Of a DNA stretch of 64,000 bases, positions 15,498 to 38,757 are shown one piece after another. A program made the translations under genes and the position numbers. The stretch comes from Candidatus Levyibacteriota bacterium (GTDB taxonomy: Bacteria > Patescibacteriota > Microgenomatia > Levybacterales > UBA12049). The DNA is taken from positions 68,573-132,572 of the forward strand of contig JAZDGF010000001.1 of the NCBI GenBank assembly GCA_043807135.1. The letters are read 5' to 3'. Numbering within the stretch: position 1 is the stretch's first letter; each line of letters begins with the position of its first letter. The notes beneath the pieces were generated by a model. That model was not told the DNA's origin, did not search any database, and was given only the letters and a program-made list of their open reading frames with translations.

Positions 15498-15859
15498 GGG
15501 GATGAATTGACTCGACAAGATTGTACTTTAAAAAATTGCAAGCCGACACGATTAAAGTCGTTAAATCGATCAAAAATATAAATGCAGACTATTCTTATAG
15601 TCGTGGTCCAAAACTCGCTTACGCATTTGCTTAAGCAAGCTAAGACCTGTCTGTATATTTCACCCAACGGGAATATATAGGCACAAATTTAGTTGGGAAA
15701 ACAGTAAGGAAACGGTTATATCCTTACTTTGAATTTATAACCTAACCTTATTCTCTCCTGTCGATTGGATTAAGAATAAGGAGATTTAAAAAATCGACTA
15801 CGCTTGTAGAAGTTTTTTATTGTTATTCTTGGACTCCGGTTCACTGCCGGACATCTCCA
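15498..15859 (+). ncRNA. ssrA: tmRNA (SsrA)
   Basis: Immediately downstream of smpB. 5' GGGGAUGAAUUGACUCGACAAGA matches the tmRNA 5' consensus (GGGGnUGAUUnGAUUCGAC). 5' GGGGAUG pairs with 3' CAUCUCC, followed by discriminator A. T-arm-like CCGGUUCACUGCCGG. Candidate tag ORF 15583-15633 (ADYSYSRGPKLAYAFA*) ends in an AxAxA-like motif. Confidence 0.8.
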
Positions 15860-15892
15860 CAGAAAAACACGCGAAGGCGGGTTTTCTTATTA

Positions 15893-24025: not shown

Positions 24026-24601
24026 ATGACTACCTTTAAAAAGGAAGCTGAGGAGGAAAAGGAAGAGGAAAAGGAAAAAGATATAGCAGATAGATCTTTT
24101 GAAGGAGTAAGAACCCTTCTTTCCTGGAAAGCTCCTGGAAGACCGTTTAGGAAAAGAAGTAAACAATATTATTTAACCAGTATCTTAATTGCTTTTCTAA
24201 TTGAAACCATCTTATTCTTATTCTCTCAATATCTTTTAATGCTAGTTGTTGCATCTTTGCTTTTCCTTGCCTTTGCATTAGCTTCAGTACCTCCACGTGA
24301 TTTTCATTACCGCATAAGCACAGAGGGAATTATGGTTGAAGATCATTTTTTCCTTTGGCAAGAGCTTTATGACTTTTATTTTAAAAAAAATGATCACATA
24401 GATACCCTACATATTGGAACCCATGCTTTTTTTCCAGGAGAAATCACAATTCCTTTTCAAAATATTGACAAAGAGCATCTTAAAAACATTCTTGTTCCCT
24501 TTTTACCTTACAGAGAATTTGTAAAACCAACTTTTATGGAAAAATCCGCAGATTGGCTTACTCATAATTTTCCTCTTGAAAAAACTCATCAAGCATCTTA
24601 A
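24026..24601 (+). CDS. hypothetical membrane protein with acidic N-terminus
   Basis: EEEKEEEKEKD N-terminus, two TM helices, C-terminal soluble domain; no recognisable motif. Confidence 0.4.
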   Translation: MTTFKKEAEEEKEEEKEKDIADRSFEGVRTLLSWKAPGRPFRKRSKQYYLTSILIAFLIETILFLFSQYLLMLVVASLLFLAFALASVPPRDFHYRISTEGIMVEDHFFLWQELYDFYFKKNDHIDTLHIGTHAFFPGEITIPFQNIDKEHLKNILVPFLPYREFVKPTFMEKSADWLTHNFPLEKTHQAS

Positions 24602-24649
24602 GTTGCCCAAGCTCCTATAATACAGTAAAATACGGATGGATTTTAGTTT

Positions 24650-24722
24650 GTACCCGTAGTTCAATGGATAGAACACCTGGTTGCGGTCCAGGCGGTTGGA
24701 GGTTCGATTCCTCTCGGGTACG
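24650..24722 (+). tRNA. tRNA-Arg (anticodon read as GCG)
   Basis: GTACCCGTAGTTCAATGGATAGAACACCTGGTTGCGGTCCAGGCGGTTGGAGGTTCGATTCCTCTCGGGTACG. Acceptor GTACCCG/CGGGTAC, anticodon stem CCTGG/CCAGG, loop TTGCGGT so anticodon GCG, T-loop TTCGATT. GCG for Arg is unusual (ACG is normal), so confirm with tRNAscan-SE. Confidence 0.65.
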
Positions 24723-24727
24723 CAAAC

Positions 24728-24814
24728 GGTGGGATGCTGGAGCGGCTTAACAGGCTGGTTTCGAAAACCATGCGGGGCGAAAGTCCCACGGGGGTTCAAA
24801 TCCCTCTCCCACCG
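24728..24814 (+). tRNA. tRNA-Ser (anticodon CGA), type II
   Basis: GGTGGGATGCTGGAGCGGCTTAACAGGCTGGTTTCGAAAACCATGCGGGGCGAAAGTCCCACGGGGGTTCAAATCCCTCTCCCACCG. Acceptor GGTGGGA/TCCCACC, loop TTCGAAA, long variable arm. 5 nt downstream of the preceding tRNA. Confidence 0.8.
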
Positions 24815-24826
24815 CAATCTTTAGTT

Positions 24827-25243
24827 ATGAAATTTGAGTTTTCTGCAGGCGGAATTGTTTTTAGGAAAGATGATAATAAAACTTTTGTTCTTGTTTCAAA
24901 ACATTCCGAGCATCACGGATGGGTTTTTCCAAAAGGACTAATTGGAGATAGTATTAAAGGAGAAGATAGAAAAAGCACTGCCTTAAGAGAAGTTAAAGAA
25001 GAAACAGGTATTAATGCAAAAATTCTAAAATCTTTAAATCCTGTTTTCTACTTTTATATTTGGGAGGGAGAAAAAATTAAAAAAACCGTTTATTATTTTT
25101 TAATGGAATACTTATCAGGAGACTTTGAAGAAAGGGACTTTGAAATGGAAGAAGTTAAGTGGATTTTAAAAGAAAACGTTGAAAAAAGACTAACTTACAA
25201 ATCAGACAAAAAAGTTTGGCAAGAAGCAAAAGTTGATTTATAA
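24827..25243 (+). CDS. NUDIX hydrolase
   Basis: Nudix box GWVFPKGLIGDSIKGEDRKSTALREVKEETGI (GX5EX7REVXEEXGI). Probable start ATG 24827 (MKFEFSAGG); the ORF-track start at 24734 overlaps the tRNA. Confidence 0.85.
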   Translation: MKFEFSAGGIVFRKDDNKTFVLVSKHSEHHGWVFPKGLIGDSIKGEDRKSTALREVKEETGINAKILKSLNPVFYFYIWEGEKIKKTVYYFLMEYLSGDFEERDFEMEEVKWILKENVEKRLTYKSDKKVWQEAKVDL

Positions 25244-25254
25244 TATAAAGCCTT

Positions 25255-25341
25255 GGAGGGATCGCATAGTGGCCTAGTGCGCGCGCTTGGAAAGCGCGTA
25301 TGCCCGTAAGGGTATCGCGGGTTCAAATCCCGCTCCCTCCG
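25255..25341 (+). tRNA. tRNA-Ser (anticodon GGA), type II
   Basis: GGAGGGATCGCATAGTGGCCTAGTGCGCGCGCTTGGAAAGCGCGTATGCCCGTAAGGGTATCGCGGGTTCAAATCCCGCTCCCTCCG. Acceptor GGAGGGA/TCCCTCC, anticodon stem CGCGC/GCGCG, loop TTGGAAA, long variable arm. Confidence 0.8.
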
Positions 25342-25381
25342 CAACTTGACACGGAATATAAAATAATTCAAACTATACTTA

Positions 25382-26983
25382 ATGAAAACTGCCCGGTTTA
25401 TTAAGTTTTTTGTTGTTTGTCTATTTTTGGTTTTATTTCTCTTTTCCACTCAAAAACAAGCTTTTGCGCAAAATTATAATTATCAACCACGTTCAAGTTA
25501 TACAACTCCAGTAACAAATCCTGATGTTCCAAAAAATCTCCATACCTATAGTCAAAGTGTAATTATTGAACTTATGTCCTCTGTTTCTTGTCTTGTAGTA
25601 GGAGTTGACCCAGTTTCTGTAAATAGAAAATGCCTTGGAATAGATACTAATACGGGAAAAATCGGTTATGTAGAAAAAAATGGAGGACTTATTGGAGTCT
25701 CTGCTAATCTTATTGCAATGACTTATAAAATCCCAATCCATACCTCTGATTATGTAGATTATATGGCTAGTAATTTTGGTGTTACCAAAAGCGCTTATGC
25801 ACAGGATACCGGAGTTGGTTTTGAAGGAATAAGGCCATTGTTAAGTCTCTGGGTAGTTTTTAGAGACATCGTATATCTATTGTTTGTTATTGTATTTGTT
25901 TTAATTGGAATAGCCATTATGCTTAGGGTAAAAATTGATCCAAGGACTGTTATGTCTATTCAAAATCAGATACCAAGAATTATTGTTGCTTTAGTTTTAG
26001 TCACTCTCTCCTTTGCAATTGCTGGATTTTTAATTGACCTTATGTGGATTTTTACCTTCTTAATAATAAATCTTTTTTCTGATGCAAATATTTCTCCTAA
26101 ATTAAACGCTGCAGAGGTTGGCTCAAAGATTATGGGAAATCCCTTTGTATTTATAAATGATCTTTTAGGATGGGGCGGATTTGGTCTATTAAAAATTCCT
26201 GCATCAATTGGAGTTACTGTTTTTGAAATTTTGGCAAATTTATTAAAGTTTGACTTTGATTTGGGCGGTGGAGTGATAGCTTGGATTCTGAATGCTGTTA
26301 CAAGCCCTATACGTAATATTATAGGCGTGCTTGGCGGAATAGCTGGTTTTCTTGTTATTGCAATTGCTTTGGCAATTGCTTTGTTTAGGCTTTGGTTTAC
26401 TCTTATTCAAGCCTTTGTTATGATTATTTTAGATATTATTATTGCTCCTTTCTGGATTATGTCAGGAGTAATTCCGGGAAGATCAATTGGATTTGGTAGC
26501 TGGTTTAAAGACATTCTTGCAAATTTATCTGCATTCCCTGCTGTTGTTTTTTTGTTTATTCTCACTGAAAGACTTATGAACGCTTATGAAAGCACTACAA
26601 CCTCAGCTCCCTTTGTTCCCCCTCTTTTAGGTGGAACTATTGCCCAGGACTCAATAAAAGGAATTATTGCCTTTGGCATGATTATGGCAAGTCCAAAAAT
26701 TGTTAGCATGATAAAAGCCGCGCTAAAAGCTCCAAAATATGATACATCTTCTGTTATTGGGGGTGCTACTGCTGCAGCTGGAGTAATTGGTCAACCAAGT
26801 AGAGTTGGATGGAATAGACTTACTCGCAGAAGAGATCCGTGGGGCCATTATAGTGAAGGTAAGCTGAGAGGATTAGTTATGGGAAAACCTGGTACAGAAA
26901 ATAGAGCGCAGAAGTGGATAAGAAGGGTTGCTGAGGGAAGTTTTCAAGACGCTAAACAACTTGAGGAACAAAGAAGAAGATAA
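25382..26983 (+). CDS. polytopic membrane protein, VirB6/TrbL-like candidate (T4SS inner-membrane channel component)
   Basis: Signal peptide, ~150-aa periplasmic N-domain, then 6-8 hydrophobic helices and a basic C-tail. Architecture and position (first gene of the T4SS-like block) fit VirB6-family proteins. No sequence motif confirms it. Confidence 0.45.
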   Translation: MKTARFIKFFVVCLFLVLFLFSTQKQAFAQNYNYQPRSSYTTPVTNPDVPKNLHTYSQSVIIELMSSVSCLVVGVDPVSVNRKCLGIDTNTGKIGYVEKNGGLIGVSANLIAMTYKIPIHTSDYVDYMASNFGVTKSAYAQDTGVGFEGIRPLLSLWVVFRDIVYLLFVIVFVLIGIAIMLRVKIDPRTVMSIQNQIPRIIVALVLVTLSFAIAGFLIDLMWIFTFLIINLFSDANISPKLNAAEVGSKIMGNPFVFINDLLGWGGFGLLKIPASIGVTVFEILANLLKFDFDLGGGVIAWILNAVTSPIRNIIGVLGGIAGFLVIAIALAIALFRLWFTLIQAFVMIILDIIIAPFWIMSGVIPGRSIGFGSWFKDILANLSAFPAVVFLFILTERLMNAYESTTTSAPFVPPLLGGTIAQDSIKGIIAFGMIMASPKIVSMIKAALKAPKYDTSSVIGGATAAAGVIGQPSRVGWNRLTRRRDPWGHYSEGKLRGLVMGKPGTENRAQKWIRRVAEGSFQDAKQLEEQRRR

Positions 26984-27050: not shown

Positions 27051-30000
27051 TTAATACCCTTTCATAACTGCTTGAAGAAACTTCAAAGTCCCTACAAATC
27101 CTGCGTGGGCAAATGCAGCAATGCCTTCTTTTTTAAATTCTTCTCTAAAAAGATCTTTATATCTCGACTGTGCCATTCCTTCTATTTGATCAAATTCTTT
27201 TGCAGTGAAAAAAGAAGACTTTTTCTTGGTTGTTTTATATTTTCCATCTTTATCGAGATCTTCTTCTTCTATTCCGTAAGGAAAATTCTTGAAAAGAAAC
27301 TCAATTGCTGCAATGTCCATTGAGCTATACCAAGAATATCCCTCATCTTCTTGTCTATGTGACCAAAGATCTTTTGCAATAAAGTATGCAAAAGGCAGTC
27401 TGGCAAGTCTTTTCCTTACATGTTCTGGAGCTTCACCTTCTCCTTCAAATTCTCGATCAAAAGGATCTCTATATCCATTTTTAAATAATCCACGATTAGT
27501 CCCGTCAGCTTCAGGCTTCCCATCTTTGTCTGCATATAAATTAAAGCTTAATACTTCTTCATTAAACATATGCTCCTCAAGCTTTTTTTCACCAAATTTT
27601 AGTATGGGGTCTTTTTCCTCTCCGTTTTCGTCAAGCCCCGATTCATCCTTTTCATACCACCACTCCCTTACTTCATGCCCATAAAGAAATTCCGGAAGAT
27701 CAAATGTATATCTTGTATTTTTCCAAAACTCTTTAAATACCTTGTCTCTTTCTTCTTCAATTATCTGAAGTCTTCCATAAGCACCCTTTACAACCATCTT
27801 TGAATAATCTATCCCGTGATGTGTTGTAATGAATTCATAAAACTTGAATGCATTAAAGACATGATCGTCTATAAATTTTCTTTGTGCATTTCCTTTGAAG
27901 CTAAAAGCTCGTATATCTTCATCTATAGAAACATTATTCCCCTGTCCTCCTTGTAAAATTTCAAGCAAAGTTTTCTTAAAGCTTTTTTCACCATAAGCGT
28001 CTCCTTCGCTTACGGTCGTTGCTTCAAGGAAGTTTAAACCAATTCTTTTCAGTCCAAAAACGTTTTGAATATTTCCTACAGCACTTTTTGCATCTTTATA
28101 TTGCCCTTTTCTATACTCAGCTGTATTAATTAGCTTAGACCATCCGTCAAAACCAATTGCCTTTGTGTCATTTCTTGCTTGTATTCCCATCCACCTTACC
28201 ATAGTACTTACCCATTCAACAGCATACTTTGCTTCTTCTTTTGCATGCATTATTTCTTTATCTTCTAGCTCTTTAATCGAAAATCTTAAACATAATTCTT
28301 TATATTCTTTAGGATAATCTTTTTTTAGAATCTCAAATACTATTCTTTCATCAGATATTGCTGCAACCATAGCCCCGTTTACTAGTTCTTTTATTGCCTC
28401 TGGTTTTTTTGGATGGTTAAATATATTAAGATCATTTAACTCAAGCTCCCAATTTTTTAAACATTTTTCTGCAGCGTCTCTTATTTCTTTAGTCATCTCT
28501 GTTTCCCCAGAGATTTTTTCTAACTCTTCTACTCCTCCTGTCTTGCCAATAATATATCTGTAAAAATTAAGTGTTCCTTCTTCTCCAAGAACTTCTTCAA
28601 ACATATTTTTTTCCTCACCATCTGGCTTATAAGCTATTTCTGAAAGATGATAATAAGCAAGTAGTATTTTTTGTATATCTTTTCCTACAGAACCTTGTTT
28701 TTCTTGATGCTCAATCTTGTCTTTACCTATGATCCACTCTAATTCTTCTGCATTGTTTCCTGAAAGCATCAGTATTTTAAGAAGTCTATTCCTATTCTTT
28801 GTAAAAATATTGTTATAATGTATTTCAGCTAGTGCATTTGGGAGATCTTTTTCTATCCCCTCAACCATATGGTATTTAACATTAAAGTTATGCGACATTT
28901 GAAAAAGCCATACTTCAATCAATAACAGTTCTTTTAAATTCTCCTGCTTTTTTGGAAGATGGTAATCTCCTGTTGGAAGCATCCCCATTTTGGGATCAGG
29001 TTTTTCTACCTTGGTCATAAAGTATTTAGCATAAGCCATCATTTCTCCGAAGTTAATTGATCTATAGTTAGTAGTAACGCCAATATCAGAAAAAAGATTT
29101 ACTTCAGCATCTGAATGTAGATCATGATAATAAAGAATTCTACTTCTAATCCATGCTAAAAAATTCTCTGCTTTGAATTTTCCTTCTTTATCTAAAAGCT
29201 CATGTTTTCCGCCGGTTCTCCATTCCGGATCTTGAGCACTCATAATAAGTCTTGCCAAATCTTCTGCACTATTAAGAAGAGTATCGTATCCAAACTGTCC
29301 CTCAAATCTTTTAATAAAATCTCCAAGTGTGACATCTCGTATTCCTTTCTCCTCTCTTGTTTCATGCTCTGTTTCTAGCCCAGACAGTCTTAAAAATAAA
29401 TTCCTAGCACTTCTAAAATCCTCTTCTCTCTCAAAATTCAACTCTCCTTTTCTTGCTTTTGTTATAAGTCCTCTTGCGATTTCTAAATCTTTAAGAAACT
29501 CATCTTTTTTGCTTTCATCTTCTTCAAACTTATTTACATTAAGGCTTCCATTCTTTATTCCACTTTCTATATTTGCTATCATACTAGCCCAGGCAACATC
29601 AATTGCTAAAAATTTTGTGAAATCTTCTTGAGATTCTGCTTTTATTAATTCTTGTATCATTTCTTGATAAATTTTCTCAGAAGAATTATCCCTATTTTCT
29701 TTTTCTGACTTATCTATTGCATTTGTAAGATCATTTGTAAATTCCTCTGTTTCTTTTCCTCCATCAGGAAAAAATTTTTCAGCAGTACCTTTTGCTATAT
29801 TTCTTTGATGACGCTTTCGTTGATTTTCTTGCGCAATTTCTCCTAAGCCAAGACCTTCCAGCACATTTTTTACAGATTCCTCCGATATCGACACTTCTGT
29901 TGCTGCTGACGAACTTTTAGATGAATGTTCCGTAGGACGGTCATGTTCTCCAGGGGGACCTTCTTCTGACATAAAAATATCTCCTTCTCCTCCAAGTTTA

Positions 30001-30080
30001 GAAGCATTAGGTTTGCTTGTCAACGCTTCTTGACTATCTGTTTGGCCATTTGATGAAATATTATTTTCTTTTTCTGTCAT
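27051..30080 (-). CDS. large (1009 aa) acidic hypothetical protein with disordered Ser/Glu-rich N-terminus
   Basis: Single uninterrupted ORF, no TM segments, no recognisable catalytic motifs, ~100-aa low-complexity N-terminus. Lies inside the T4SS-like block on the opposite strand. Confidence 0.6.
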   Translation of the reverse strand: MTEKENNISSNGQTDSQEALTSKPNASKLGGEGDIFMSEEGPPGEHDRPTEHSSKSSSAATEVSISEESVKNVLEGLGLGEIAQENQRKRHQRNIAKGTAEKFFPDGGKETEEFTNDLTNAIDKSEKENRDNSSEKIYQEMIQELIKAESQEDFTKFLAIDVAWASMIANIESGIKNGSLNVNKFEEDESKKDEFLKDLEIARGLITKARKGELNFEREEDFRSARNLFLRLSGLETEHETREEKGIRDVTLGDFIKRFEGQFGYDTLLNSAEDLARLIMSAQDPEWRTGGKHELLDKEGKFKAENFLAWIRSRILYYHDLHSDAEVNLFSDIGVTTNYRSINFGEMMAYAKYFMTKVEKPDPKMGMLPTGDYHLPKKQENLKELLLIEVWLFQMSHNFNVKYHMVEGIEKDLPNALAEIHYNNIFTKNRNRLLKILMLSGNNAEELEWIIGKDKIEHQEKQGSVGKDIQKILLAYYHLSEIAYKPDGEEKNMFEEVLGEEGTLNFYRYIIGKTGGVEELEKISGETEMTKEIRDAAEKCLKNWELELNDLNIFNHPKKPEAIKELVNGAMVAAISDERIVFEILKKDYPKEYKELCLRFSIKELEDKEIMHAKEEAKYAVEWVSTMVRWMGIQARNDTKAIGFDGWSKLINTAEYRKGQYKDAKSAVGNIQNVFGLKRIGLNFLEATTVSEGDAYGEKSFKKTLLEILQGGQGNNVSIDEDIRAFSFKGNAQRKFIDDHVFNAFKFYEFITTHHGIDYSKMVVKGAYGRLQIIEEERDKVFKEFWKNTRYTFDLPEFLYGHEVREWWYEKDESGLDENGEEKDPILKFGEKKLEEHMFNEEVLSFNLYADKDGKPEADGTNRGLFKNGYRDPFDREFEGEGEAPEHVRKRLARLPFAYFIAKDLWSHRQEDEGYSWYSSMDIAAIEFLFKNFPYGIEEEDLDKDGKYKTTKKKSSFFTAKEFDQIEGMAQSRYKDLFREEFKKEGIAAFAHAGFVGTLKFLQAVMKGY

Positions 30081-30154
30081 GGCAAGAGAATTTTAAAAGA
30101 ATATAATATCGATAGCTTGATATTAACCCGACAAAAAACTTACAATATATCTAC

Positions 30155-31484
30155 CATGGATCCTAAATACTTTGAATCCCTGTATCCTAATACATCGCGC
30201 TTTAAAGAAATTGAGGAAATTTTAAGCTTTGTTAAAAACGGAAACTCTTGCCAACTTATTTCCTTTCCAGGAACCGGAAGGTCTAATATCCTGCAGCTTC
30301 TTGCCTATAATAGAGGCGTTAGAGAGAAACATCTTGGTGAAAAACAAAAATATGTCCATTTTGTTTACATGAATTTTTCAGAGGTAAGAAATCGCACTCT
30401 TCATGATGTAAATAAATTTATCTTTCTTTCTCTTATTGATTCTTTAACTGAACGAGAATTTTTAGAAGAGCACAAAAAGCTTAATAGGATTTTTAAAGAA
30501 TATTCAAAAACAAATGACGAATTAATTTTTTTTCAAGGATTAAAAGAAGCTCTTAATTATTTATCTATTGAAAAAAAACTAACAATAGTTCTTCTTTTTG
30601 ATAGATTTGAAGAATATCTTCCCGTACTCACTGATGAATTTTTTGCAAATCTTAGAATTTTAAGAAATAAGGCAAAATATCGTTTTTCTGCAGTATTCAC
30701 GCTTAACCGTCCCCTTGAAGATTTATTAAAGCCAACACTTTTTAATCAATTCTATGAATTTTTAGCAGGACATCTTGTTTATGTTTCTTTGTATGACAAG
30801 CCGGGAATGGATTTTAGAATTTCTTACTTTGAAAAAAAATATCAAAGGTCATTAGATAAAAAAACTTTAACTATCATTTTTTCTCTTACCGCAGGTCACG
30901 GAAAATTAACTCGCATTGCCCTTGAAACAGTTTTTGAGCAAAATATAAAAACCTTAACAAAAGAGGAAATTTTGCAATTATTACTAGCCAAAAAAACTAT
31001 TACCAGAGCTCTTTTTGAAATTTATAGCTTTCTTTCCAAAGAGGAAATAGAAAGACTTAATAAAAAGAGTAATGATAGCTTTTTAGAAAACATTGGCTTA
31101 TTTAAAGACAATAAAATCACAATTCTTCTTTTTGAAAAATATTTAGAGTTAAAAAAAACTTTTATCTCTACTGAAGATGAAAAAGATAAAATATTTATTG
31201 ATCATGAAACAAATGAAATTAAAAAAGGAAAAGAAAATCTTTCCGATAAATTAACTTCTTCAGAGTTTAAACTTTTAAAATATCTGTTGCAAAATCCTGA
31301 AAGAGTTATTGAGAGAAATGAGATTATTGAAGCTGTTTGGCAAAATACTGCCTCTTTTGCCGGCGTTTCTGATCAAGCAGTTGATCAACTTGTTCTTAGA
31401 ATTCGTAAGAAAATTGAAGACAATCCAAACAACCCCAACTACCTTTTAACGATTAAGGGAAGAGGATTTAAATTTATTCTCTAA
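30155..31484 (+). CDS. P-loop NTPase domain fused to C-terminal OmpR/PhoB-type winged-helix DNA-binding domain (putative transcriptional regulator)
   Basis: N-terminal Walker-A-like FPGTGRSNILQLL plus hhhhD Walker-B-like IVLLFDRFEE. C-terminal trans_reg_C-like segment LTSSEFKLLKYLLQNPERVIERNEIIEAVWQ...AVDQLVLRIRKKIE...LLTIKGRGFKF. Probable start ATG 30155 (MDPKYFESL). Confidence 0.65.
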
Positions 31485-31535
31485 CACTATCTTGGGTAGT
31501 TGCATTTTGTTAAATATTTCAGCTATGCTTAGATT

Positions 31536-32150
31536 GTGAGAAAAATAATTATATCGTTGGGAATTTTTTATATATTTTCTTTCCAACTTCCTCCTTTACA
31601 TCTAATTCATGCTCTCTTACCAGACAACGCAATGTGTGACAAAGATGAAGAATGTGCTTCCGGTGCCTGTGTAAAATACACACTTCCCGGAGAAGGGAAA
31701 ATTCGCAATACAGAAAAGCGCTGCGGTCCAATAGAAGATAAGGAAGCTAAGAAAGTTATTAACCCCGATGGTACAAAAACAGATTTGGAAGATGAGAAAA
31801 AAGTAAAGCAAGAACCCCTGCGTAATTCTCCTTGTAAGCAAGTGGGGGGTAAAGACAACGCTTATTTTAATTGTGATACTGGTTTAGGAATAACAATTAG
31901 TTCAAACCCAAAAGATTTTGTTAAAACTCTGTTTGGTGTAATTTTAAGTATCTCTGGAATGATAGCTCTCCTGCTTATAATATTTTCAGGGTATAGACTA
32001 ATCACCTCTCGGGGAAATCCAGAAAAAATTACAGATGCAAAAGACAGACTTACTTCTGCAGTTATCGGGCTCTTGTTTGTTATCTTTTCACTTGTTATAT
32101 TGCAAATTATAGGAGTTGATATTTTACATATTCCCGGATTAACAGAATGA
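31536..32150 (+). CDS. pilin-like protein (VirB2/TrbC-like candidate) with Cys-rich N-terminal domain
   Basis: Signal peptide, Cys-rich ~100-aa domain, then two hydrophobic helices flanking YRLITSRGNPEKITDAKDRLTSAV. This is a hairpin-TM topology shared with the next three genes. Confidence 0.5.
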   Translation: MRKIIISLGIFYIFSFQLPPLHLIHALLPDNAMCDKDEECASGACVKYTLPGEGKIRNTEKRCGPIEDKEAKKVINPDGTKTDLEDEKKVKQEPLRNSPCKQVGGKDNAYFNCDTGLGITISSNPKDFVKTLFGVILSISGMIALLLIIFSGYRLITSRGNPEKITDAKDRLTSAVIGLLFVIFSLVILQIIGVDILHIPGLTE

Positions 32151-32458
32151 AAGAATTAGTTCTTAAAATTAATGGGCAAGAAGTTCAAGCGCCTGAAGGA
32201 GTTCCAGTAGGAGGAGCTGATACAGGAAGTCAAATAATTTCCTTGAGCGTAACAGTTCTTTTTATAGTAGCAATTTTGCTTGCTCTTATATTTTTAATTT
32301 GGGGAGGAATTGATTGGACTACGTCTCAAGGAGATAAGAATAAAGTTCATGCAGCAAGAGAAAAGATAGTATATTCTATTATCGGACTTAGTGTAGTTTT
32401 ACTATCTTTTTTTATTGTTTCTCTAGTATCTGGTATTTTAGGAGTGAAACTTTTTTAA
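32147..32458 (+). CDS. pilin-like protein paralog (VirB2/TrbC-like candidate)
   Basis: TM - LIWGGIDWTTSQGDKNKVHAAREKI - TM. Shares the motif 'GG(I/V)xW(T/I)xSQGDK(N/S)KV..AR' with the 32518 paralog. 4-nt overlap with the upstream gene. Confidence 0.5.
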   Translation: MKELVLKINGQEVQAPEGVPVGGADTGSQIISLSVTVLFIVAILLALIFLIWGGIDWTTSQGDKNKVHAAREKIVYSIIGLSVVLLSFFIVSLVSGILGVKLF

Positions 32459-32517
32459 TATTTAATAAAGGAAGGACTTGACAAGCCAAAAAAAACATCG
32501 TACGATAAAGAAAAGTT

Positions 32518-32934
32518 ATGAAAAAATTATTTGCCATCCCCACTTCAGTTGCTCTCTATCTTACTAACGCTCCTTTAGCTTTTGCACAAGGAACACCAAT
32601 TGATCCCTGCGCAGCATCAGACAGTAAATTCAATGTTCTTTGCGAGCTAAATGCTGGACAGTTTGGTAAGCTTGTTGGAACTGCTATTACTGCCGTTTTT
32701 GTAATTGCTGTTATTATCGCTCTTATTTATTTAATTTACGGCGGTGTTCGCTGGATAATGTCCCAGGGAGATAAAAGCAAAGTCCAAGAAGCAAGAAGTC
32801 ATATTATAGCTGCTGTTTTAGGATTAATAATTGTTTTCCTTGCCTACTTTATAATAAATATTATTCTCGGGGTGTTCCTAGGAATAAGTATTGATCAAAT
32901 AGAACTTCCTAACCTCAAGGACGCAATAAAATAA
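32518..32934 (+). CDS. pilin-like protein paralog (VirB2/TrbC-like candidate)
   Basis: Signal peptide (AFAQG), Cys pair, TM - LIYGGVRWIMSQGDKSKVQEARSHI - TM. Confidence 0.5.
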   Translation: MKKLFAIPTSVALYLTNAPLAFAQGTPIDPCAASDSKFNVLCELNAGQFGKLVGTAITAVFVIAVIIALIYLIYGGVRWIMSQGDKSKVQEARSHIIAAVLGLIIVFLAYFIINIILGVFLGISIDQIELPNLKDAIK

Positions 32935-32996: not shown

Positions 32997-33332
32997 TATT
33001 CCAAAAGGAGACCTATAGGAGGAGATTGGGGGGATTGTGTTCAGGAGGGAGTAGCAACTCTTTCTTGCATTCCTGTTGTTTTAGCAAGTGTTGTTAACTG
33101 GGCTTTAATATTTGCAGGCGTAGTTGCTTTAGTAATTGTAATTTTGTCTGGGATTAAATTTATAACCTCTAAGGGAGACAAAAAACAAGTTGCAAGTGCT
33201 AAGAGTAGTTTATCCTATGCAATACTAGGGTTAATTTTAATCTTTCTTTCCTTTTTTATAATAAGACTTATTGGTTATATTACAGGAGTTGATTGTATAA
33301 ACACTTTTGGCTTTAATAATTGTACTAGTTAA
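32997..33332 (+). CDS. pilin-like paralog, possibly pseudogene or non-canonical start
   Basis: The frame is open from 32997 and encodes ...GDWGDCVQEGVATLSCIPVVLASVVNWALIFAGVVALVIVILSGIKFITSKGDKKQVASAKSSLSYAILGLILIFLSFFII..., the same TM-motif-TM layout. There is no in-frame ATG; the ORF track starts it at TTG 33144, which lies inside TM1. A G6 homopolymer tract at 33028-33033 sits after an AGGAGG at 33018-33023. Confidence 0.35.
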   Translation, partial: YSKRRPIGGDWGDCVQEGVATLSCIPVVLASVVNWALIFAGVVALVIVILSGIKFITSKGDKKQVASAKSSLSYAILGLILIFLSFFIIRLIGYITGVDCINTFGFNNCTS

Positions 33333-34369
33333 TTATTTGCTCCTGCTTTTGCAACTCCTTGAGTAACAACTATAGACAAAAGAAATAATCCCGCAATTAA
33401 AAAAAGTATGTTTTTCCCATATTTTTTTTCTAGATCATCCGCTTCTTTATCCCCCATCACAATACCTATCATCTCCGTTGCATCTTCCTCGCTTAGTTCT
33501 TTCCCAAGAATAGCGTCAACAACCCCTTTATATTTTTCAGGATCGTTATTCTGAAAAAAATTCTCGAAATCAAAATTGCCATCCAATATTGCTTTTTTTT
33601 GGACATCATTCAACGGAGCATCTTTTAACCCTTCGCTTATTAGCTCTTTTCCTTTATTTACCTTTTCTTGGTCAATTTCACTTAAAAATTTATCCACATC
33701 TATTCCTAACTCTTTTAATCCTTGAAGGGCTAATTGCCCATGGTATTCACCTCTTTCCCCCTCAGCCTTTTTTGCACAAAATATTTTCGACAATTGCATC
33801 CTTTCCAATGAAGTATCTTCGCTTTTATCTTCTTTCTCTTTTATTTTCTCTCTCAAAGAAACTTCCTGACTATTAAAAAGATCATTTATAGTTTCCGGAG
33901 GACTTTCTATCTCTGTTGCAGATTCTTCTGGAAACTCAAAAGCATATATCCCTTTTTCTTTAAGAATAGCCTTATCCCCAGGAGTTACTTTATCAAGTTC
34001 TTTTTTCCACTCATTTAGAGAATAACTTTTACCGTCTAATTCAACTTTAATATTTTCAGATATCTCATCTAATGTTCCCTTCGCTTCTTCATCATCATAA
34101 AGATCTTCTAATGCCTCTACGTTAGCTCGTAATGCTTTTGAATTTTCTTCTACTCCTTTGCTCGCATCATATGTAAGAGCAAGCTCTCCTTTTTCTTTAT
34201 CAAGTTCCCCTCTATCTATTTTCTTACGAATTATTACTTCTGAGGCGCCAAAAAACTGTTGAGCTCTTTCTTTCCCTTTTTCTCTTAAACCCTCTCCTTT
34301 TGGAACTACACTCTTTTCAGGAATTTTAACTTCTGGAACTGGTGGTCCTTCTGCTGCTCCTTCACTCAT
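33329..34369 (-). CDS. acidic coiled-coil protein with C-terminal transmembrane anchor (tail-anchored)
   Basis: 346 aa, E/K-rich, predicted coiled coils, single C-terminal TM (ILFLIAGLFLLSIVVTQGVA). No catalytic motifs. Confidence 0.5.
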   Translation of the reverse strand: MSEGAAEGPPVPEVKIPEKSVVPKGEGLREKGKERAQQFFGASEVIIRKKIDRGELDKEKGELALTYDASKGVEENSKALRANVEALEDLYDDEEAKGTLDEISENIKVELDGKSYSLNEWKKELDKVTPGDKAILKEKGIYAFEFPEESATEIESPPETINDLFNSQEVSLREKIKEKEDKSEDTSLERMQLSKIFCAKKAEGERGEYHGQLALQGLKELGIDVDKFLSEIDQEKVNKGKELISEGLKDAPLNDVQKKAILDGNFDFENFFQNNDPEKYKGVVDAILGKELSEEDATEMIGIVMGDKEADDLEKKYGKNILFLIAGLFLLSIVVTQGVAKAGANN

Positions 34370-34423: not shown

Positions 34424-34759
34424 ATGTCCACTGGCAAAGCAGAAGCATTAGCAGCACAAATTAATCCTGAAGACAGGCCTATTGCAGTACGTGAATATCC
34501 AAAAGAAACCCCTGCTCCCAAGATTGAGATACCAACTCAAGCCCAGTCATCAGAACCAGTTAAGGCATCTGATATTAGAGAAGGTATGGTTAAAGGAGAT
34601 AAAGAAATAGAATTTAGCAAACATGCACAAAAGTTAGAGGCAGCAGATACTGATGCAAAAATTGAAGAAGTAAAAAGAGAACTAGAAGAACATTCTATAA
34701 GTCATAATCCTGTTTCTGGAGAAACTTCTTCTGATAATAATCCTTCTTTTTCCGAATAG
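34424..34759 (+). CDS. small acidic hypothetical protein
   Basis: 111-aa ORF, E/K/S-rich, no motifs; located within the T4SS-like block. Confidence 0.35.
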   Translation: MSTGKAEALAAQINPEDRPIAVREYPKETPAPKIEIPTQAQSSEPVKASDIREGMVKGDKEIEFSKHAQKLEAADTDAKIEEVKRELEEHSISHNPVSGETSSDNNPSFSE

Positions 34760-36100: not shown

Positions 36101-36766
36101 ATGAGTAAAGCTGCCCAAAGAATTCATGCAACAACTCAAAAATTTACAGAGATTGAAGAAATCTCTGAAGACATTGTCATTTTTCAAGGCGGAAATGCTA
36201 CTTTAGTAATTGAAGTAACCGCAACAAATTTTGCTCTTCTTTCAAGAGAGGAACAAGATACTAAAATCTATTCTTACGCAGCGCTTCTAAATTCACTTTC
36301 TTTTGCAATTCAAATAATTGTTAGAAGTAAAAAATTAGACATTACAGCATATTTAAAACTGCTCGATTCTCAAGCAAAGGCAACCCAGAATGAACTTCTC
36401 AAAAATCAAATAAGCTTGTATCGAGATTTTGTCCAGGAATTAGTTAAGGTAAATACCGTACTTGATAAAAAATTTTATATTTGTATTCCCTACTCTTATC
36501 TTGAAAAAGGAGTTGGTGCTACCGCAAGTTCGGTAAGCAAGGGCGGGCCAAAAGACAATTTTACAGAACAAGCAAAAGCTGCGCTTCATTCAAAAGCAGA
36601 AAGTATCTTGTCTCAAGTTGCAAGATTAAATCTTAGAGCAAAAGTTTTGGAAAAAGAAGAGCTTGTAAAGCTTTACTATGAAACTTACAACGATCAATCA
36701 ATTGAAACAAATCAAATAACAGATAATGTTAGAACACCAATTGTCAGAGGAGAGGAGAAAAAATAA
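36101..36766 (+). CDS. hypothetical soluble protein directly preceding virB4-like gene
   Basis: 221-aa ORF with no TM or motifs; its stop overlaps the VirB4-like start (ATAATG) suggesting translational coupling. Confidence 0.45.
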   Translation: MSKAAQRIHATTQKFTEIEEISEDIVIFQGGNATLVIEVTATNFALLSREEQDTKIYSYAALLNSLSFAIQIIVRSKKLDITAYLKLLDSQAKATQNELLKNQISLYRDFVQELVKVNTVLDKKFYICIPYSYLEKGVGATASSVSKGGPKDNFTEQAKAALHSKAESILSQVARLNLRAKVLEKEELVKLYYETYNDQSIETNQITDNVRTPIVRGEEKK

Positions 36767-38757
36767 TGTTTTTTGGAAAAAAGAAAAAAGATAACAAACA
36801 AACAATAGCACCTACTCAAAAAACGCCGACCTCAAAAGAGTTAGCAAAGGTGGAAAAAGGTATGGTTTCTTTATCAGATGTAATTGCACCTTCTTCTGTT
36901 GAAGTGGACTTTCATTATGTTCGAGTAGGAGAAAGGTATTACAAAACATTTTTTGTTGTTGGCTATCCACGCTATGTCTCCCCAAATTGGCTACAGCCTT
37001 TAATTGATTTTGATCATTCAATGAATGTGTCCATGTTTGCCTATCCCACCTCTTCTCCGGATGTTCTATCTGACTTAAGAAGAAAAATTGCTGAGATGGA
37101 AGCAACAATTTCTTCTCAGATTGAAGAAGGAAAAGTTGTTGATGCAAAAGTAAGAGCATCTCTTGATGATGCCCTGTCAATTCAAGAACAATTAGCAAAG
37201 GGGGTTGAGCGGTTTTTTCAATTCAGCTTATACATTACCCTTATCTCAGATCATCCAAAAGAACTTGAAGAGGCATCAAAAAGACTTTCGTCTACTCTTG
37301 GTTCAATCATGATGATTGCCAAAACTGCAACCCTACAAATGGAAGACGGATTTAAATCAAGTATTCCTATGGGTCAAGATAAATTATTTATTACCAGAAA
37401 CATGGATACAACTTCTCTTGCTTCTACATTTCCTTTTACATCAGCAACTCTTGCTCAGGAAAAAGGAGTTATGTATGGAATAAATGAGCAAAATGGATCC
37501 CTTGTTATCTTTGATCGCTTTTCCCTTGAAAATGCCAATGAGGTTGTTTTGGGAAAGTCAGGATCAGGAAAATCATACTTAATAAAGCTTGAGGTTTTAA
37601 GACAATTCATGTTTGGAACCGAAGTTATTATTATTGACCCTGAAGGAGAGTATGGACAAATTGCAAAAACTATGGGAGGAGAAGAAGTTGCCTTTACTCC
37701 TTCTAATCCAATTAAAATAAATCCGTTTGATTTATCAGGGCTTTACGAGGAAGGTGAAAATGAGCTTGGTCTTAAAATTCTTTCCTTGCATGGACTTTTA
37801 AGAATCGTTATGGGAGATTTGGATGCTGCCCATGACGCAATTTTAGATCGAGCACTGGTTGAAACCTACAGACAAAAAGGAATAACTACTGATCCGGCAA
37901 CACAGAAAAAAACTCCTCCTTTAATGGAAGATCTTTATAAAGTTTTATTGGGAATGGAAGATTCGCAAGCAGGAGAACTTGCGCTTCGCCTTGAAAAGTT
38001 TATTAAAGGAAGCTTGAACGGCATTTTTAATCAACAATCAAACTTTGATATAAAAAACGCTTTAACAATCTTTAATATTAAAGCCTTAGAGGAAGAACTA
38101 AGACCAGTTGCAATGCATATTATTCTTGATTTTGTTTGGACTAGGGTTAGAAAAACCCTTAAGAAGAGACTTTTAATACTAGATGAAGCTTGGTATATTA
38201 TGAAATATCCTGATTCAGCTTCCTTTGTATATGGGATTGCCAAAAGATCAAGAAAATACTATCTTGCCTTAACAACCGCAACCCAGGATGCTCAGGACTT
38301 CTTATCAACTGATTATGGAAGGGCAATTCTTTCCAACTCCTCTATCCAGATGCTTTTAAAACAAAGCCCAACGGAAATTGATTTGATCTCAAAAGTTTTC
38401 TATCTTTCCGAAGGAGAAAAAGAGCTACTTCTTTCAGCAGACATTGGAGAGGGGTTATTTTTTGCCGGACAAAGTCATGTTGCCATGAAGGTAATTGCAG
38501 CACCTTTTGAGCACACTTTAATTACGTCTAATCCTCAAGAAATTTTAAACATAAGGGAACAAGAGGAAACGGAAATAAAAGCTCAGGAAACAACTCAAGA
38601 TATGCCAATACAGCCAATTGCTCCTCCTATAGATCAAAAACCACAACCGCCATTGGAAGATAACATTTCAGAAACAAAACCACCTACTCCGGTAAATCTA
38701 GAGAGTGCCCCTCCAATAAATGATGCTCAAAGCACAATTCCGAATTCAAATACATAA
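36766..38757 (+). CDS. virB4: VirB4/TraE/PrgJ-family type IV secretion ATPase
   Basis: Walker A VLGKSGSGKSY, Walker B RLLILDEAWYIM, VirB4-like N-terminal membrane-associated domain, ~660 aa like Gram-positive VirB4 homologues (TcpF/PrgJ/TrsE). Confidence 0.85.
   Translation: MFFGKKKKDNKQTIAPTQKTPTSKELAKVEKGMVSLSDVIAPSSVEVDFHYVRVGERYYKTFFVVGYPRYVSPNWLQPLIDFDHSMNVSMFAYPTSSPDVLSDLRRKIAEMEATISSQIEEGKVVDAKVRASLDDALSIQEQLAKGVERFFQFSLYITLISDHPKELEEASKRLSSTLGSIMMIAKTATLQMEDGFKSSIPMGQDKLFITRNMDTTSLASTFPFTSATLAQEKGVMYGINEQNGSLVIFDRFSLENANEVVLGKSGSGKSYLIKLEVLRQFMFGTEVIIIDPEGEYGQIAKTMGGEEVAFTPSNPIKINPFDLSGLYEEGENELGLKILSLHGLLRIVMGDLDAAHDAILDRALVETYRQKGITTDPATQKKTPPLMEDLYKVLLGMEDSQAGELALRLEKFIKGSLNGIFNQQSNFDIKNALTIFNIKALEEELRPVAMHIILDFVWTRVRKTLKKRLLILDEAWYIMKYPDSASFVYGIAKRSRKYYLALTTATQDAQDFLSTDYGRAILSNSSIQMLLKQSPTEIDLISKVFYLSEGEKELLLSADIGEGLFFAGQSHVAMKVIAAPFEHTLITSNPQEILNIREQEETEIKAQETTQDMPIQPIAPPIDQKPQPPLEDNISETKPPTPVNLESAPPINDAQSTIPNSNT

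Follow-up and report, generated by a model that had tools for sequence, protein, structure and literature searches.

The closest described systems to the locus studied here are the MPF-FATA-like T4SSs of Patescibacteria, as covered in sections of two reports (Quinonero-Coronel et al. 2025, PMC12102498; Wang et al. 2023, PMC10633639). According to those sections, epibiotic growth of the sole genetically tractable species requires the T4SS, and this system may export proteins, with no relaxase present and its substrate not yet known; VirB6 is described there as scarce in Microgenomatia. The locus in our window, a 64,000-nucleotide stretch of DNA from a member of the Levyibacteriota (CPR, ultra-small), shares with these systems a VirB2-like pilin array, PrgI/VirB3, TrsD, VirB4 and wall hydrolases beside dnaA. 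It differs from them in an AAA+–wHTH regulator and a large variable protein, neither of which is mentioned in the sections and term searches of the two papers that were covered, and in a candidate divergent VirB6/TrbL-like gene that is present in every locus, in contrast to the scarcity reported there for Microgenomatia. Our preferred reading, to which we assign a probability of roughly 40%, is that the regulator, the large protein and the VirB6-like protein form a conserved accessory module, in which the large protein would be a lineage-variable accessory or docking part of the T4SS.

A conserved triad in the T4SS locus

The regulator and the large gene form the upstream edge of a chromosomal, oriC-proximal T4SS/pilus locus that contains T4SS pilins, PrgI, a TrsD-like gene, VirB4 and wall hydrolases; dnaN and dnaA adjoin it, ~13 kb from the regulator gene. 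The initial annotation had reported a 1,009-aa ORF on the opposite strand and an ORF divergent from it, and both are present (27051..30080, − strand, and an ORF ending at 31484, + strand). Convergent with the large gene is tm533 (25382..26983, + strand), which encodes a 533-aa polytopic membrane protein and is a candidate divergent VirB6/TrbL-like gene. The Pfam TrbL family (PF04610) matched 3 of 29 tm533 homologues (best E 1.9e-7), and the window copy had no match.

From 168 matching stretches we kept 80 Levyibacteriota loci. In nearly all of these, the regulator lies directly upstream of the pilin array and the regulator/large-gene unit lies inside the T4SS block. Exactly one large gene, of class A or class B/C, adjoins the regulator in 70 loci, either divergent from it or directly downstream, and this adjacency is kept through rearrangements that shift its position relative to the pilins. 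Every locus has the tm533 gene within its T4SS block, and in each the gene converges with the large gene, whether the pair lies to one side of the regulator or the other. A reciprocal scan begun from the large protein returned the same triad of regulator, large gene and tm533 gene. A scan of the locus genes gave no match to a coupling-protein family, an Rfam scan of the region found no known RNA elements, and PADLOC gave no defence match.

An AAA+ module joined to an OmpR/PhoB winged helix

The regulator (442 aa; 30156..31484, + strand) comprises an AAA+ NTPase-like domain with a lid (about residues 1–340) followed by an OmpR/PhoB winged helix (residues 365–440). Pfam and a high-confidence structure model back the earlier description of an NTPase with a C-terminal OmpR/PhoB winged helix, an order reversed relative to AfsR. 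The proposed comparison with Trans_reg_C (PF00486) gave a match at 31248..31475 (+ strand; E 6e-21) that, with a score of 74.7 bits, exceeds the cut-off of 26.2 and spans profile positions 5–77 of 77; the same family matched 55 of 55 regulator relatives. Sequence matches of the winged helix in the PDB are response-regulator DNA-binding domains, and Foldseek aligned it to 2d1v (YycF; TM-score 0.76 on the target, r.m.s.d. 2.2 Å, 97 columns) and 4nhj (RstA; TM-score 0.77). A Pfam search for a receiver domain gave no Response_reg match, the N-terminus folding as AAA+ instead, and NCBIfam response-regulator models align only to residues 338–454, with scores far below their cut-offs.

In the AF2 model (pLDDT 91.2), the N-terminus forms a P-loop AAA+ α/β core with a lid. 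The top Foldseek matches, at probability 1.0, are Cdc6/Orc1/ORC4, with CED-4, MuB, TnsC, RFC, Vps4 and archaeal ATPases also matched at that probability; TM-scores to ORC are low (0.33–0.40). Among the 55 relatives, Pfam matches to AAA_35, AAA_16 and STAND families are weak but recurrent, and ORC-CDC6-like matched a single member weakly (E 0.0025). Neither nucleotide-binding motif of the family (n = 55) has the canonical form, which is GxxxxGK[ST] for Walker A and hhhhDE for Walker B. The variant Walker A, S-F-P-G-T-G-R-S in the window (30261..30284, + strand; family consensus GxPGxGRS), is invariant at G39 and G41 across all 55 members, with R42 in 52 and Lys in the other 3; the Walker-B-like motif, hhhhD-R-F-E, has D149 in 54 of 55, and the residue that follows the Asp is not acidic. 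Given the Walker-A Arg and the missing catalytic Glu after the Walker-B Asp, the regulator would most likely be a nucleotide-binding switch that oligomerizes on DNA, not a hydrolysing motor.

Like other members of the OmpR/PhoB family (PhoB, YycF/WalR, CadC and ToxR), the regulator carries a C-terminal 77-residue winged helix that scores above the Pfam threshold, and this domain superposes on YycF and RstA. Unlike OmpR/PhoB response regulators, it has neither a receiver nor a partner kinase, takes its input from an AAA+ NTPase-like module and has no direct-repeat operator that we could find. With AfsR, the large SARPs and the MalT/LAL STAND proteins it shares the union of a P-loop NTPase and a DNA-binding domain in one transcription factor. 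However, the AfsR order of wHTH, BTAD, NB-ARC and TPR is the reverse of that found here, MalT bears a LuxR HTH in place of the OmpR-type winged helix, and the regulator, at only 442 aa, has no BTAD, TPR or other sensor repeats; Pfam found no BTAD, NB-ARC or TPR match that would indicate an AfsR/SARP architecture. Archaeal Orc1/Cdc6 and eukaryotic ORC4/Cdc6 provide the best fold matches and share the order of AAA+ base, lid and C-terminal winged helix, whereas the regulator is set apart by a TM-score of ~0.4, an OmpR-type winged helix, the Walker-A Arg, its bacterial host, its T4SS context and the coexistence of DnaA. We propose that an Orc1/Cdc6-like AAA+ domain takes the place of the receiver ahead of the winged helix.

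The divergent control region and the start of the large gene

The initial annotation placed a divergent intergenic region of ~36 bp at 30081–30116. In homologues and in the NCBI annotation, the regulator begins at Met14 of the earlier ORF (ATG 30156), and because it does, the region measures 75 bp (30081..30155). We rejected TTG 30117 as the start, this triplet being part of the −35 box of the regulator's own promoter (30117..30146, + strand), which consists of TTGATA (30117–30122), an 18-nt A-rich spacer and a −10 box TACAAT (30141–30146) that ends 9 nt before the ATG. The heptamer CTTGATA is invariant in the regulator promoters of 13 loci. In most of 16 readable loci the divergent intergenic region measures 69–81 bp; one is 98 bp long, and two values were trimmed. 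Back to back with the regulator promoter lies P1, whose −10-like box TAAAAT (30090..30095, − strand) stands 9 nt before the first start codon of the large gene (ATG1, 30080..30078), a leaderless-type arrangement with no good −35 box. An A(G/T)TTTAA block at P1 is invariant in 13 aligned intergenic regions, and the layout of a −10 box and ATG-AAA-GAR also occurs in loci in which the large gene lies downstream of the regulator.

Direct repeats of the OmpR type had been suggested as possible binding sites; neither a repeat finder nor inspection of the pilin promoters downstream revealed a shared operator. One candidate, CTTAYAA-N4-CTTAYAA in the spacer of the regulator promoter, was rejected: the window holds 5 matches where 5.6 would be expected, and the local copy is degenerate.

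The 36-codon N-terminal extension that starts at ATG1 (29973..30080, − strand) is a dual-use sequence, because its frame is kept open and it also carries a second promoter, P2. The P2 −35 box TTGACA (30018..30023, − strand) reads 'Leu-Thr' in the long ORF; the −10 box TAAACT (29995..30000, − strand) follows after 17 nt, and then come 22 nt including GGAG before the ATG. The Shine–Dalgarno-like element GGAGGAGAAGGAG (29981..29993, − strand) reads 'GGEGD' and lies 8 nt before the second start codon, ATG2; such an element otherwise precedes only 3 of 48 other genes in the window. TTGACA is present at P2 in 29 of 30 loci, whereas just 15.5% of the Leu codons of these genes are TTG (binomial 8e-23), and the −35 box has an ACA codon in 29 of 29 (1e-12). 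Upstream of ATG2, the frame is open for 29–66 codons in all 38 strict-signature loci, with one to six stops in each of the other two frames, and the distances from the P2 −10 box to the ATG (13, 16, 19, 22 and 43 nt) are all 1 mod 3. Two relatives (L058 and L073) lack ATG1 and keep P2 and ATG2, and in many loci the P2-type motif is a leaderless promoter 6–9 nt before ATG2. A main product probably starts at Met37 (29972), the ATG2 behind the internal promoter, and has 973 aa (27051..29972 with the stop, − strand), an acidic protein with a class A body.

Translated, this segment yields a motif common to all classes of the large protein, ELT..N..L..GDIFM. A secretion or trafficking peptide ELT..GDIFM was considered and rejected, as the motif corresponds to TTGACA-N17-TAnnnT-N19/22-ATG with extreme codon bias. 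With its consensus −35 and −10 boxes, Shine–Dalgarno element and in-frame ATG inside upstream in-frame coding sequence, the arrangement resembles genes in which internal promoters produce N-terminally different isoforms. It differs from the known examples in that P2 is conserved at the nucleotide level though the downstream proteins are mutually unrecognizable.

Two tandem promoters drive the large gene, P1 acting leaderless at ATG1 and P2 serving ATG2. In the mechanism that we propose, the regulator would bind the ~170-bp control region (29970–30156), from which it would govern its own transcription and that of the large gene, and probably also that of the pilin operon immediately downstream.

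The large protein and its possible roles

The large protein had been called an unannotatable orphan. It indeed had no family or fold match in Pfam, NCBIfam, PADLOC, PHROGs, a PDB sequence profile search, Foldseek PDB or BFVD. The orphan label does not hold: there are three full-length homologues (36–64% identity) and 282 clusters in a profile search, and the ORF is intact in relatives. The disordered N-terminus is borne out by the AF2 model (pLDDT 78, pTM 0.71), in which residues 1–66 of the 1,009-aa protein are predicted to be disordered (pLDDT <50). We found no signal peptide. The model ends in a long helix (residues 974–1008; 27057..27161, − strand) that includes a stretch of hydrophobic or amphipathic character and a tail with Lys; a hydrophobic, positively charged tail closes a protein that is otherwise acidic. 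C-terminal hydrophobicity distinguishes 67 proteins encoded in this slot from 457 other ORFs (Mann–Whitney p 1e-9); it is only moderate in the class A helix, and class B/C tails are hydrophobic enough for membrane anchors.

The two classes are mutually exclusive and never occur together in 70 loci, and positional homologues of classes B and C have no Pfam domain. A single divergent family was rejected on profile comparison (hhalign probability 0.1% for A versus B and for A versus C, against 97.8% for B versus C), and A and B/C are apparently unrelated in sequence, though they may share a fold. The large gene is the fastest evolving of the locus, its products sharing 21–36% or undetectable identity across loci versus 54–81% for VirB4. 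On the regulator tree the two classes intermingle, and 8 of 64 nearest neighbours belong to the other class. Co-variation of the VirB6-like or regulator sequence with class was rejected, as within-class and between-class identities differ by only 0.5–3 points.

As part of an accessory module, the large protein, acidic, made in the cytoplasm and with a disordered N-terminus and a C-terminal membrane-type helix, would sit at the inner membrane face with the VirB6-like protein as a T4SS accessory or docking component. The anatomy of the genes, their folds and promoters, the synteny, the classes and the relative divergence are shown here, and we infer the DNA targets and nucleotide switching of the regulator, the membrane association and any secretion role of the module; that the regulator is dedicated to the block, which the initial annotation had thought plausible, and that the large protein has a T4SS role would follow from synteny only. 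Several observations speak against the accessory module: the regulator has no operator or direct repeat among those looked for, the large protein matches no known family or fold, its class A C-terminal helix is only moderately hydrophobic, P2 is near consensus and could be constitutive, the regulator could act on unlinked genes instead, gene order is the sole tie of the large protein to the T4SS, and the divergence and two classes of this protein are unusual for a core structural part and fit host-facing cargo. The last of these leads to an alternative that we consider rather unlikely yet the strongest competitor, in which the protein is a translocated cargo, effector or host-contact factor and A and B/C are host-matched alternative payloads. 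The substrate, effector or adhesin suggested initially would accord with its rapid divergence and class switching. The missing signal peptide, the undetectable homology of classes that exclude each other and their interleaving among neighbouring genes that are not themselves split by class all favour cargo, as does the reported possibility of protein export (PMC10633639, PMC12102498, in the sections covered); the hydrophobic, positive tail is only suggestive. Yet the sole element present in every class turned out to be promoter DNA rather than a peptide signal, the scanned locus genes include no detected coupling-protein family, and class B/C tails could be membrane anchors. Exactly one copy occurs per locus, always paired with the VirB6-like gene, which counts against cargo; together with the C-terminal membrane-type helix, these features suit a machine-associated protein just as well.

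Adjacency that outlasts rearrangements relative to the pilins, and a large protein that matches no T4SS family, would also suit a self-contained module (for example stress, envelope or defence) that is unrelated to secretion and lies beside the T4SS near oriC by chance. We regard this as doubtful and as less probable than cargo, given that the unit always includes the VirB6-like gene, lies in the T4SS block in nearly all fetched loci and has no PADLOC defence match. A regulator that serves as an Orc1/Cdc6-like chromosome or replication factor at the nearby origin, and not as a transcription factor, is highly improbable: the Cdc6/Orc1/ORC4 matches, the shared domain order and the proximity of dnaN and dnaA point that way, but it carries a genuine OmpR/PhoB transcription-factor winged helix, MuB, TnsC, STAND and RFC match alongside low-scoring ORC, DnaA and DnaN are already present, and the linkage is to the large gene and pilins rather than to dnaA.

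The locus offers candidates for T4SS regulation (the AAA+–wHTH family), for a Microgenomatia VirB6 (the VirB6/TrbL-like gene) and for cargo (the class-switching large protein). A bolder and unlikely version, a little less probable than cargo in general, would make A and B/C cargoes or host-contact factors that are matched to the host and can replace each other behind an unchanging promoter cassette, under an ATP-sensing Orc1/Cdc6-like wHTH regulator; if true, they would be the first candidate substrates of a T4SS essential to the epibiotic lifestyle. The locus also carries a warning: where genomes are leaderless and AT-rich, as here, what looks like a conserved 'N-terminal motif' can be promoter sequence in translation, an effect that touches both start-site annotation and motif-based effector prediction.

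A three-gene module in the T4SS locus

The 1,009-aa ORF at 27051–30080 on the minus strand, named hypothetical protein V1697_00490 at NCBI, and the regulator gene divergent from it (30156–31484, plus strand) come from a MAG of Candidatus Levyibacteriota (CPR/Patescibacteria). They are part of the T4SS-like pilus locus that members of this group typically have on the chromosome. The locus includes three T4SS_pilin genes (31536–32934), PrgI/VirB3 (34857), a TrsD-like gene (36101) and VirB4 (36766–38757), followed by an amidase/glucosaminidase, an NlpC/P60 hydrolase, dnaN and dnaA. This arrangement agrees with a published account of Patescibacteria T4SSs, which are described as MPF-FATA-like, equipped with pilin arrays, without a relaxase and close to dnaA (PMC12102498). 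According to a second paper, a Saccharibacterium cannot grow epibiotically without its T4SS, which has no known cargo (PMC10633639).

On the contigs of homologues, the large gene lies between the regulator, from which it diverges, and the gene for a membrane protein of ~533 aa, with which it converges. Across ~80 regulator-anchored loci, wherever the flank suffices, exactly one large gene adjoins the regulator, either divergently or directly downstream, and in every case the large gene and the membrane-protein gene converge. A reciprocal scan starting from the large protein recovered the same triad. In two metagenome loci (L093 and L094), the regulator is directly upstream of a large gene of the window's sequence class (class A) on the same strand, with PrgI and TrsD on the other strand; the regulator, large gene and membrane-protein gene are still together in this local inversion.

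The polytopic 533-aa membrane protein (25382–26983, plus strand) has no Pfam match in its window copy. Because 3 of its 29 relatives match Pfam TrbL/VirB6 (best E = 1.9 × 10−7), we consider it a candidate divergent VirB6. The gene is found in every related locus, and the candidate is notable because VirB6 is reported, in excerpts of the first paper, to be scarce in Microgenomatia (PMC12102498).

Several other features of the region were observed. A fourth pilin-like reading frame (~33000–33332, plus strand), containing …VVNWALIFAGVVALVIVILSGIKFITSKGDKKQVASAKSSLSYAILGLILIFLSFFII…, has no ATG, GTG or TTG ahead of its first membrane helix; either the pilin gene has decayed or its translation begins at a non-canonical start. 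The frame runs up to the stop codon of a second opposite-strand gene within the block (33329–34369, minus strand). The product of the latter, a very acidic 346-aa protein, carries a membrane helix at its C terminus (…ILFLIAGLFLLSIVVTQGV…) and matches no family. A 111-aa acidic ORF (34424–34759, plus strand) diverges from that gene, and in one related locus (L008) a similar minus-strand gene also comes after the pilins. The relatives L005, L006 and L007 carry small 23S_rRNA_IVP/bAvd-like four-helix-bundle genes and toxin–antitoxin pairs (HicAB, BrnT/CopG and AbiEii) inserted in the T4SS/pilin block between the large gene, regulator and pilins; none of these insertions is present in the window. 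Two ORFs overlapping the tRNA-Arg/tRNA-Ser cluster on its opposite strand (24503–24817, 104 aa, and 25195–25449, 84 aa, both minus strand) are almost certainly spurious. The tmRNA gene (15498–15862, plus strand; Rfam, 128.8 bits) specifies the tag peptide ADYSYSRGPKLAYAFA.

The regulator and its control regions

Both divergent ORFs reported in the initial annotation are present, but the start it assigned to the regulator is incorrect. A conserved promoter has its −35 box at that TTG (30117), and the NCBI entry and the homologues begin at Met14 (ATG at 30156). The regulator therefore has 442 aa, and the intergenic region, put at ~36 bp when measured from the wrong start, spans 75 bp. The proposed architecture of a P-loop NTPase with an OmpR/PhoB winged helix is correct. 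The C terminus clearly matches Trans_reg_C (E = 6 × 10−21). An AlphaFold model built from 55 homologues has a pLDDT of 91, and the best Foldseek matches of its N-terminal 340 residues are Cdc6/Orc1/ORC4, with further matches to CED-4, MuB, TnsC, RFC and archaeal ATPases, all at a probability of 1.0 with a TM score of only ~0.4. Pfam matches to AAA_35, AAA_16 and STAND are weak but recurrent. The Walker A motif reads GxPGxGRS, with Arg in 52/55 members and Lys in 3/55; in the Walker B motif, Arg-Phe-Glu comes after the Asp. What is established about P-loop NTPases leads us to infer that the domain binds nucleotide with little or no hydrolysis, in which case it would be a switch.

A word-indexed search with the regulator returned more than 1,000 hits at E ≤ 1 × 10−3, the best 120 of which are 52–75% identical over nearly the full length. 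Scanning species-representative genomes gave 168 matching stretches; the best 80 are nearly all titled Levyibacteriota, Microgenomates or Patescibacteria.

The direct repeats expected as OmpR-type sites were looked for, as was a shared operator, and neither was found; the conserved elements in the control regions are the promoters themselves. It is thus from position only that we infer that the regulator acts on the T4SS block. A separate conserved promoter precedes the first pilin gene at 31485–31535, directly after the regulator stop codon (~45 loci compared), with a leaderless-type layout of CTTGCA(T/A)TT, ~17 nt, TAC(G/T)AT, 6–8 nt and the start codon.

Promoter sequence within the large gene

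An N-terminal peptide apparently common to all classes of the large protein, M[KT]E…ELTxxxNxxxLxxxGDIFMxExG, was considered as a trafficking signal and rejected when codon analysis revealed conservation at the DNA level. The 'LT' of the motif is TTGACA in 29/30 loci, with TTG making up only 15.5% of Leu codons in these genes (P = 8 × 10−23). TAnnnT lies exactly 17 nt past TTGACA, and an ATG preceded by AGGAGAT comes 19 or 22 nt past TAnnnT. On the minus strand of the window, these elements correspond to a −35 box at 30023–30018, a −10 box at 30000–29995, a GGAG run at 29993–29981 and an internal start, ATG2 (Met37), at 29972–29970.

In many relatives, the same −35/−10 pair lies only 6–9 nt ahead of ATG2, which would make the transcript leaderless there. 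Such a layout is normal for this genome: throughout the window, only 4 of 49 gene starts have an SD-like motif and 45 genes have none, many of the latter with a −10-like box (TATAAT, TAGAAT or TATACT) no more than ~12 nt from the start codon. The pattern points to leaderless mRNAs as a common feature of the organism. The other SD sites mostly precede closely packed genes, such as VirB4, that are probably operon-internal.

A separate −10-like box, not accompanied by a good −35 box, precedes the upstream start, ATG1 (30080), by 9 nt. No locus has a stop in frame from ATG1 to ATG2, the length of this stretch changes in multiples of three, and two relatives lack ATG1. The best reading is that two tandem promoters would give rise to two N-terminal isoforms, with ATG2 as the universal start.

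Sequence classes and role of the large protein

The large protein had been described as an orphan without recognizable motifs. It does have homologues, but it indeed matched no family or fold in any library searched. Three full-length homologues share 36–64% identity with it, and when 1.84 billion representatives were searched with a profile, 282 clusters matched, including 140 at E ≤ 1 × 10−30; the core common to homologues spans approximately residues 260–995. Its AF2 model is usable for residues 67–1009 (pLDDT 78, pTM 0.71), residues 1–66 being disordered. The large proteins have a disordered Pro/Glu-rich start after ATG2 and a C-terminal hydrophobic/amphipathic helix with a Lys-containing tail, which is enriched relative to other ORFs (p = 1 × 10−9).

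Three classes of large gene are distinguished: A, to which the window copy belongs, and B and C, in which the C-terminal helix is stronger. By hhalign, B is remotely homologous to C (probability 97.8%), whereas no relation of class A to either was detectable (0.1%), and none of 70 loci combines A with B or C. On the regulator tree the classes are intermingled, nearest neighbours belong to different classes in 8 of 64 cases, and identities of the neighbouring genes within and between classes differ by ≤3 points. Measured against the window copies, identity is 54–81% for VirB4, 40–70% for TrsD, 46–64% for the regulator, 33–58% for PrgI (full-length matches) and 29–60% for the VirB6-like protein (matches over ≥70% of the query). 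For the large protein, it is 21–36% or undetectable, the close homologues in loci L001 and L004 aside.

We tentatively favour a role for the large protein as a membrane-associated accessory working with the VirB6-like protein (probability roughly 0.35–0.4). The main rival reading, in which it is a translocated cargo that switches class, appears to us less likely; the protein may be an effector or adhesin, as in the earlier proposal. The literature searched, excerpts of Patescibacteria T4SS papers, contains no description of such a module. Together, the regulator, the large gene and the VirB6-like gene make up an accessory module that is real and conserved in the T4SS locus of Levyibacteriota.
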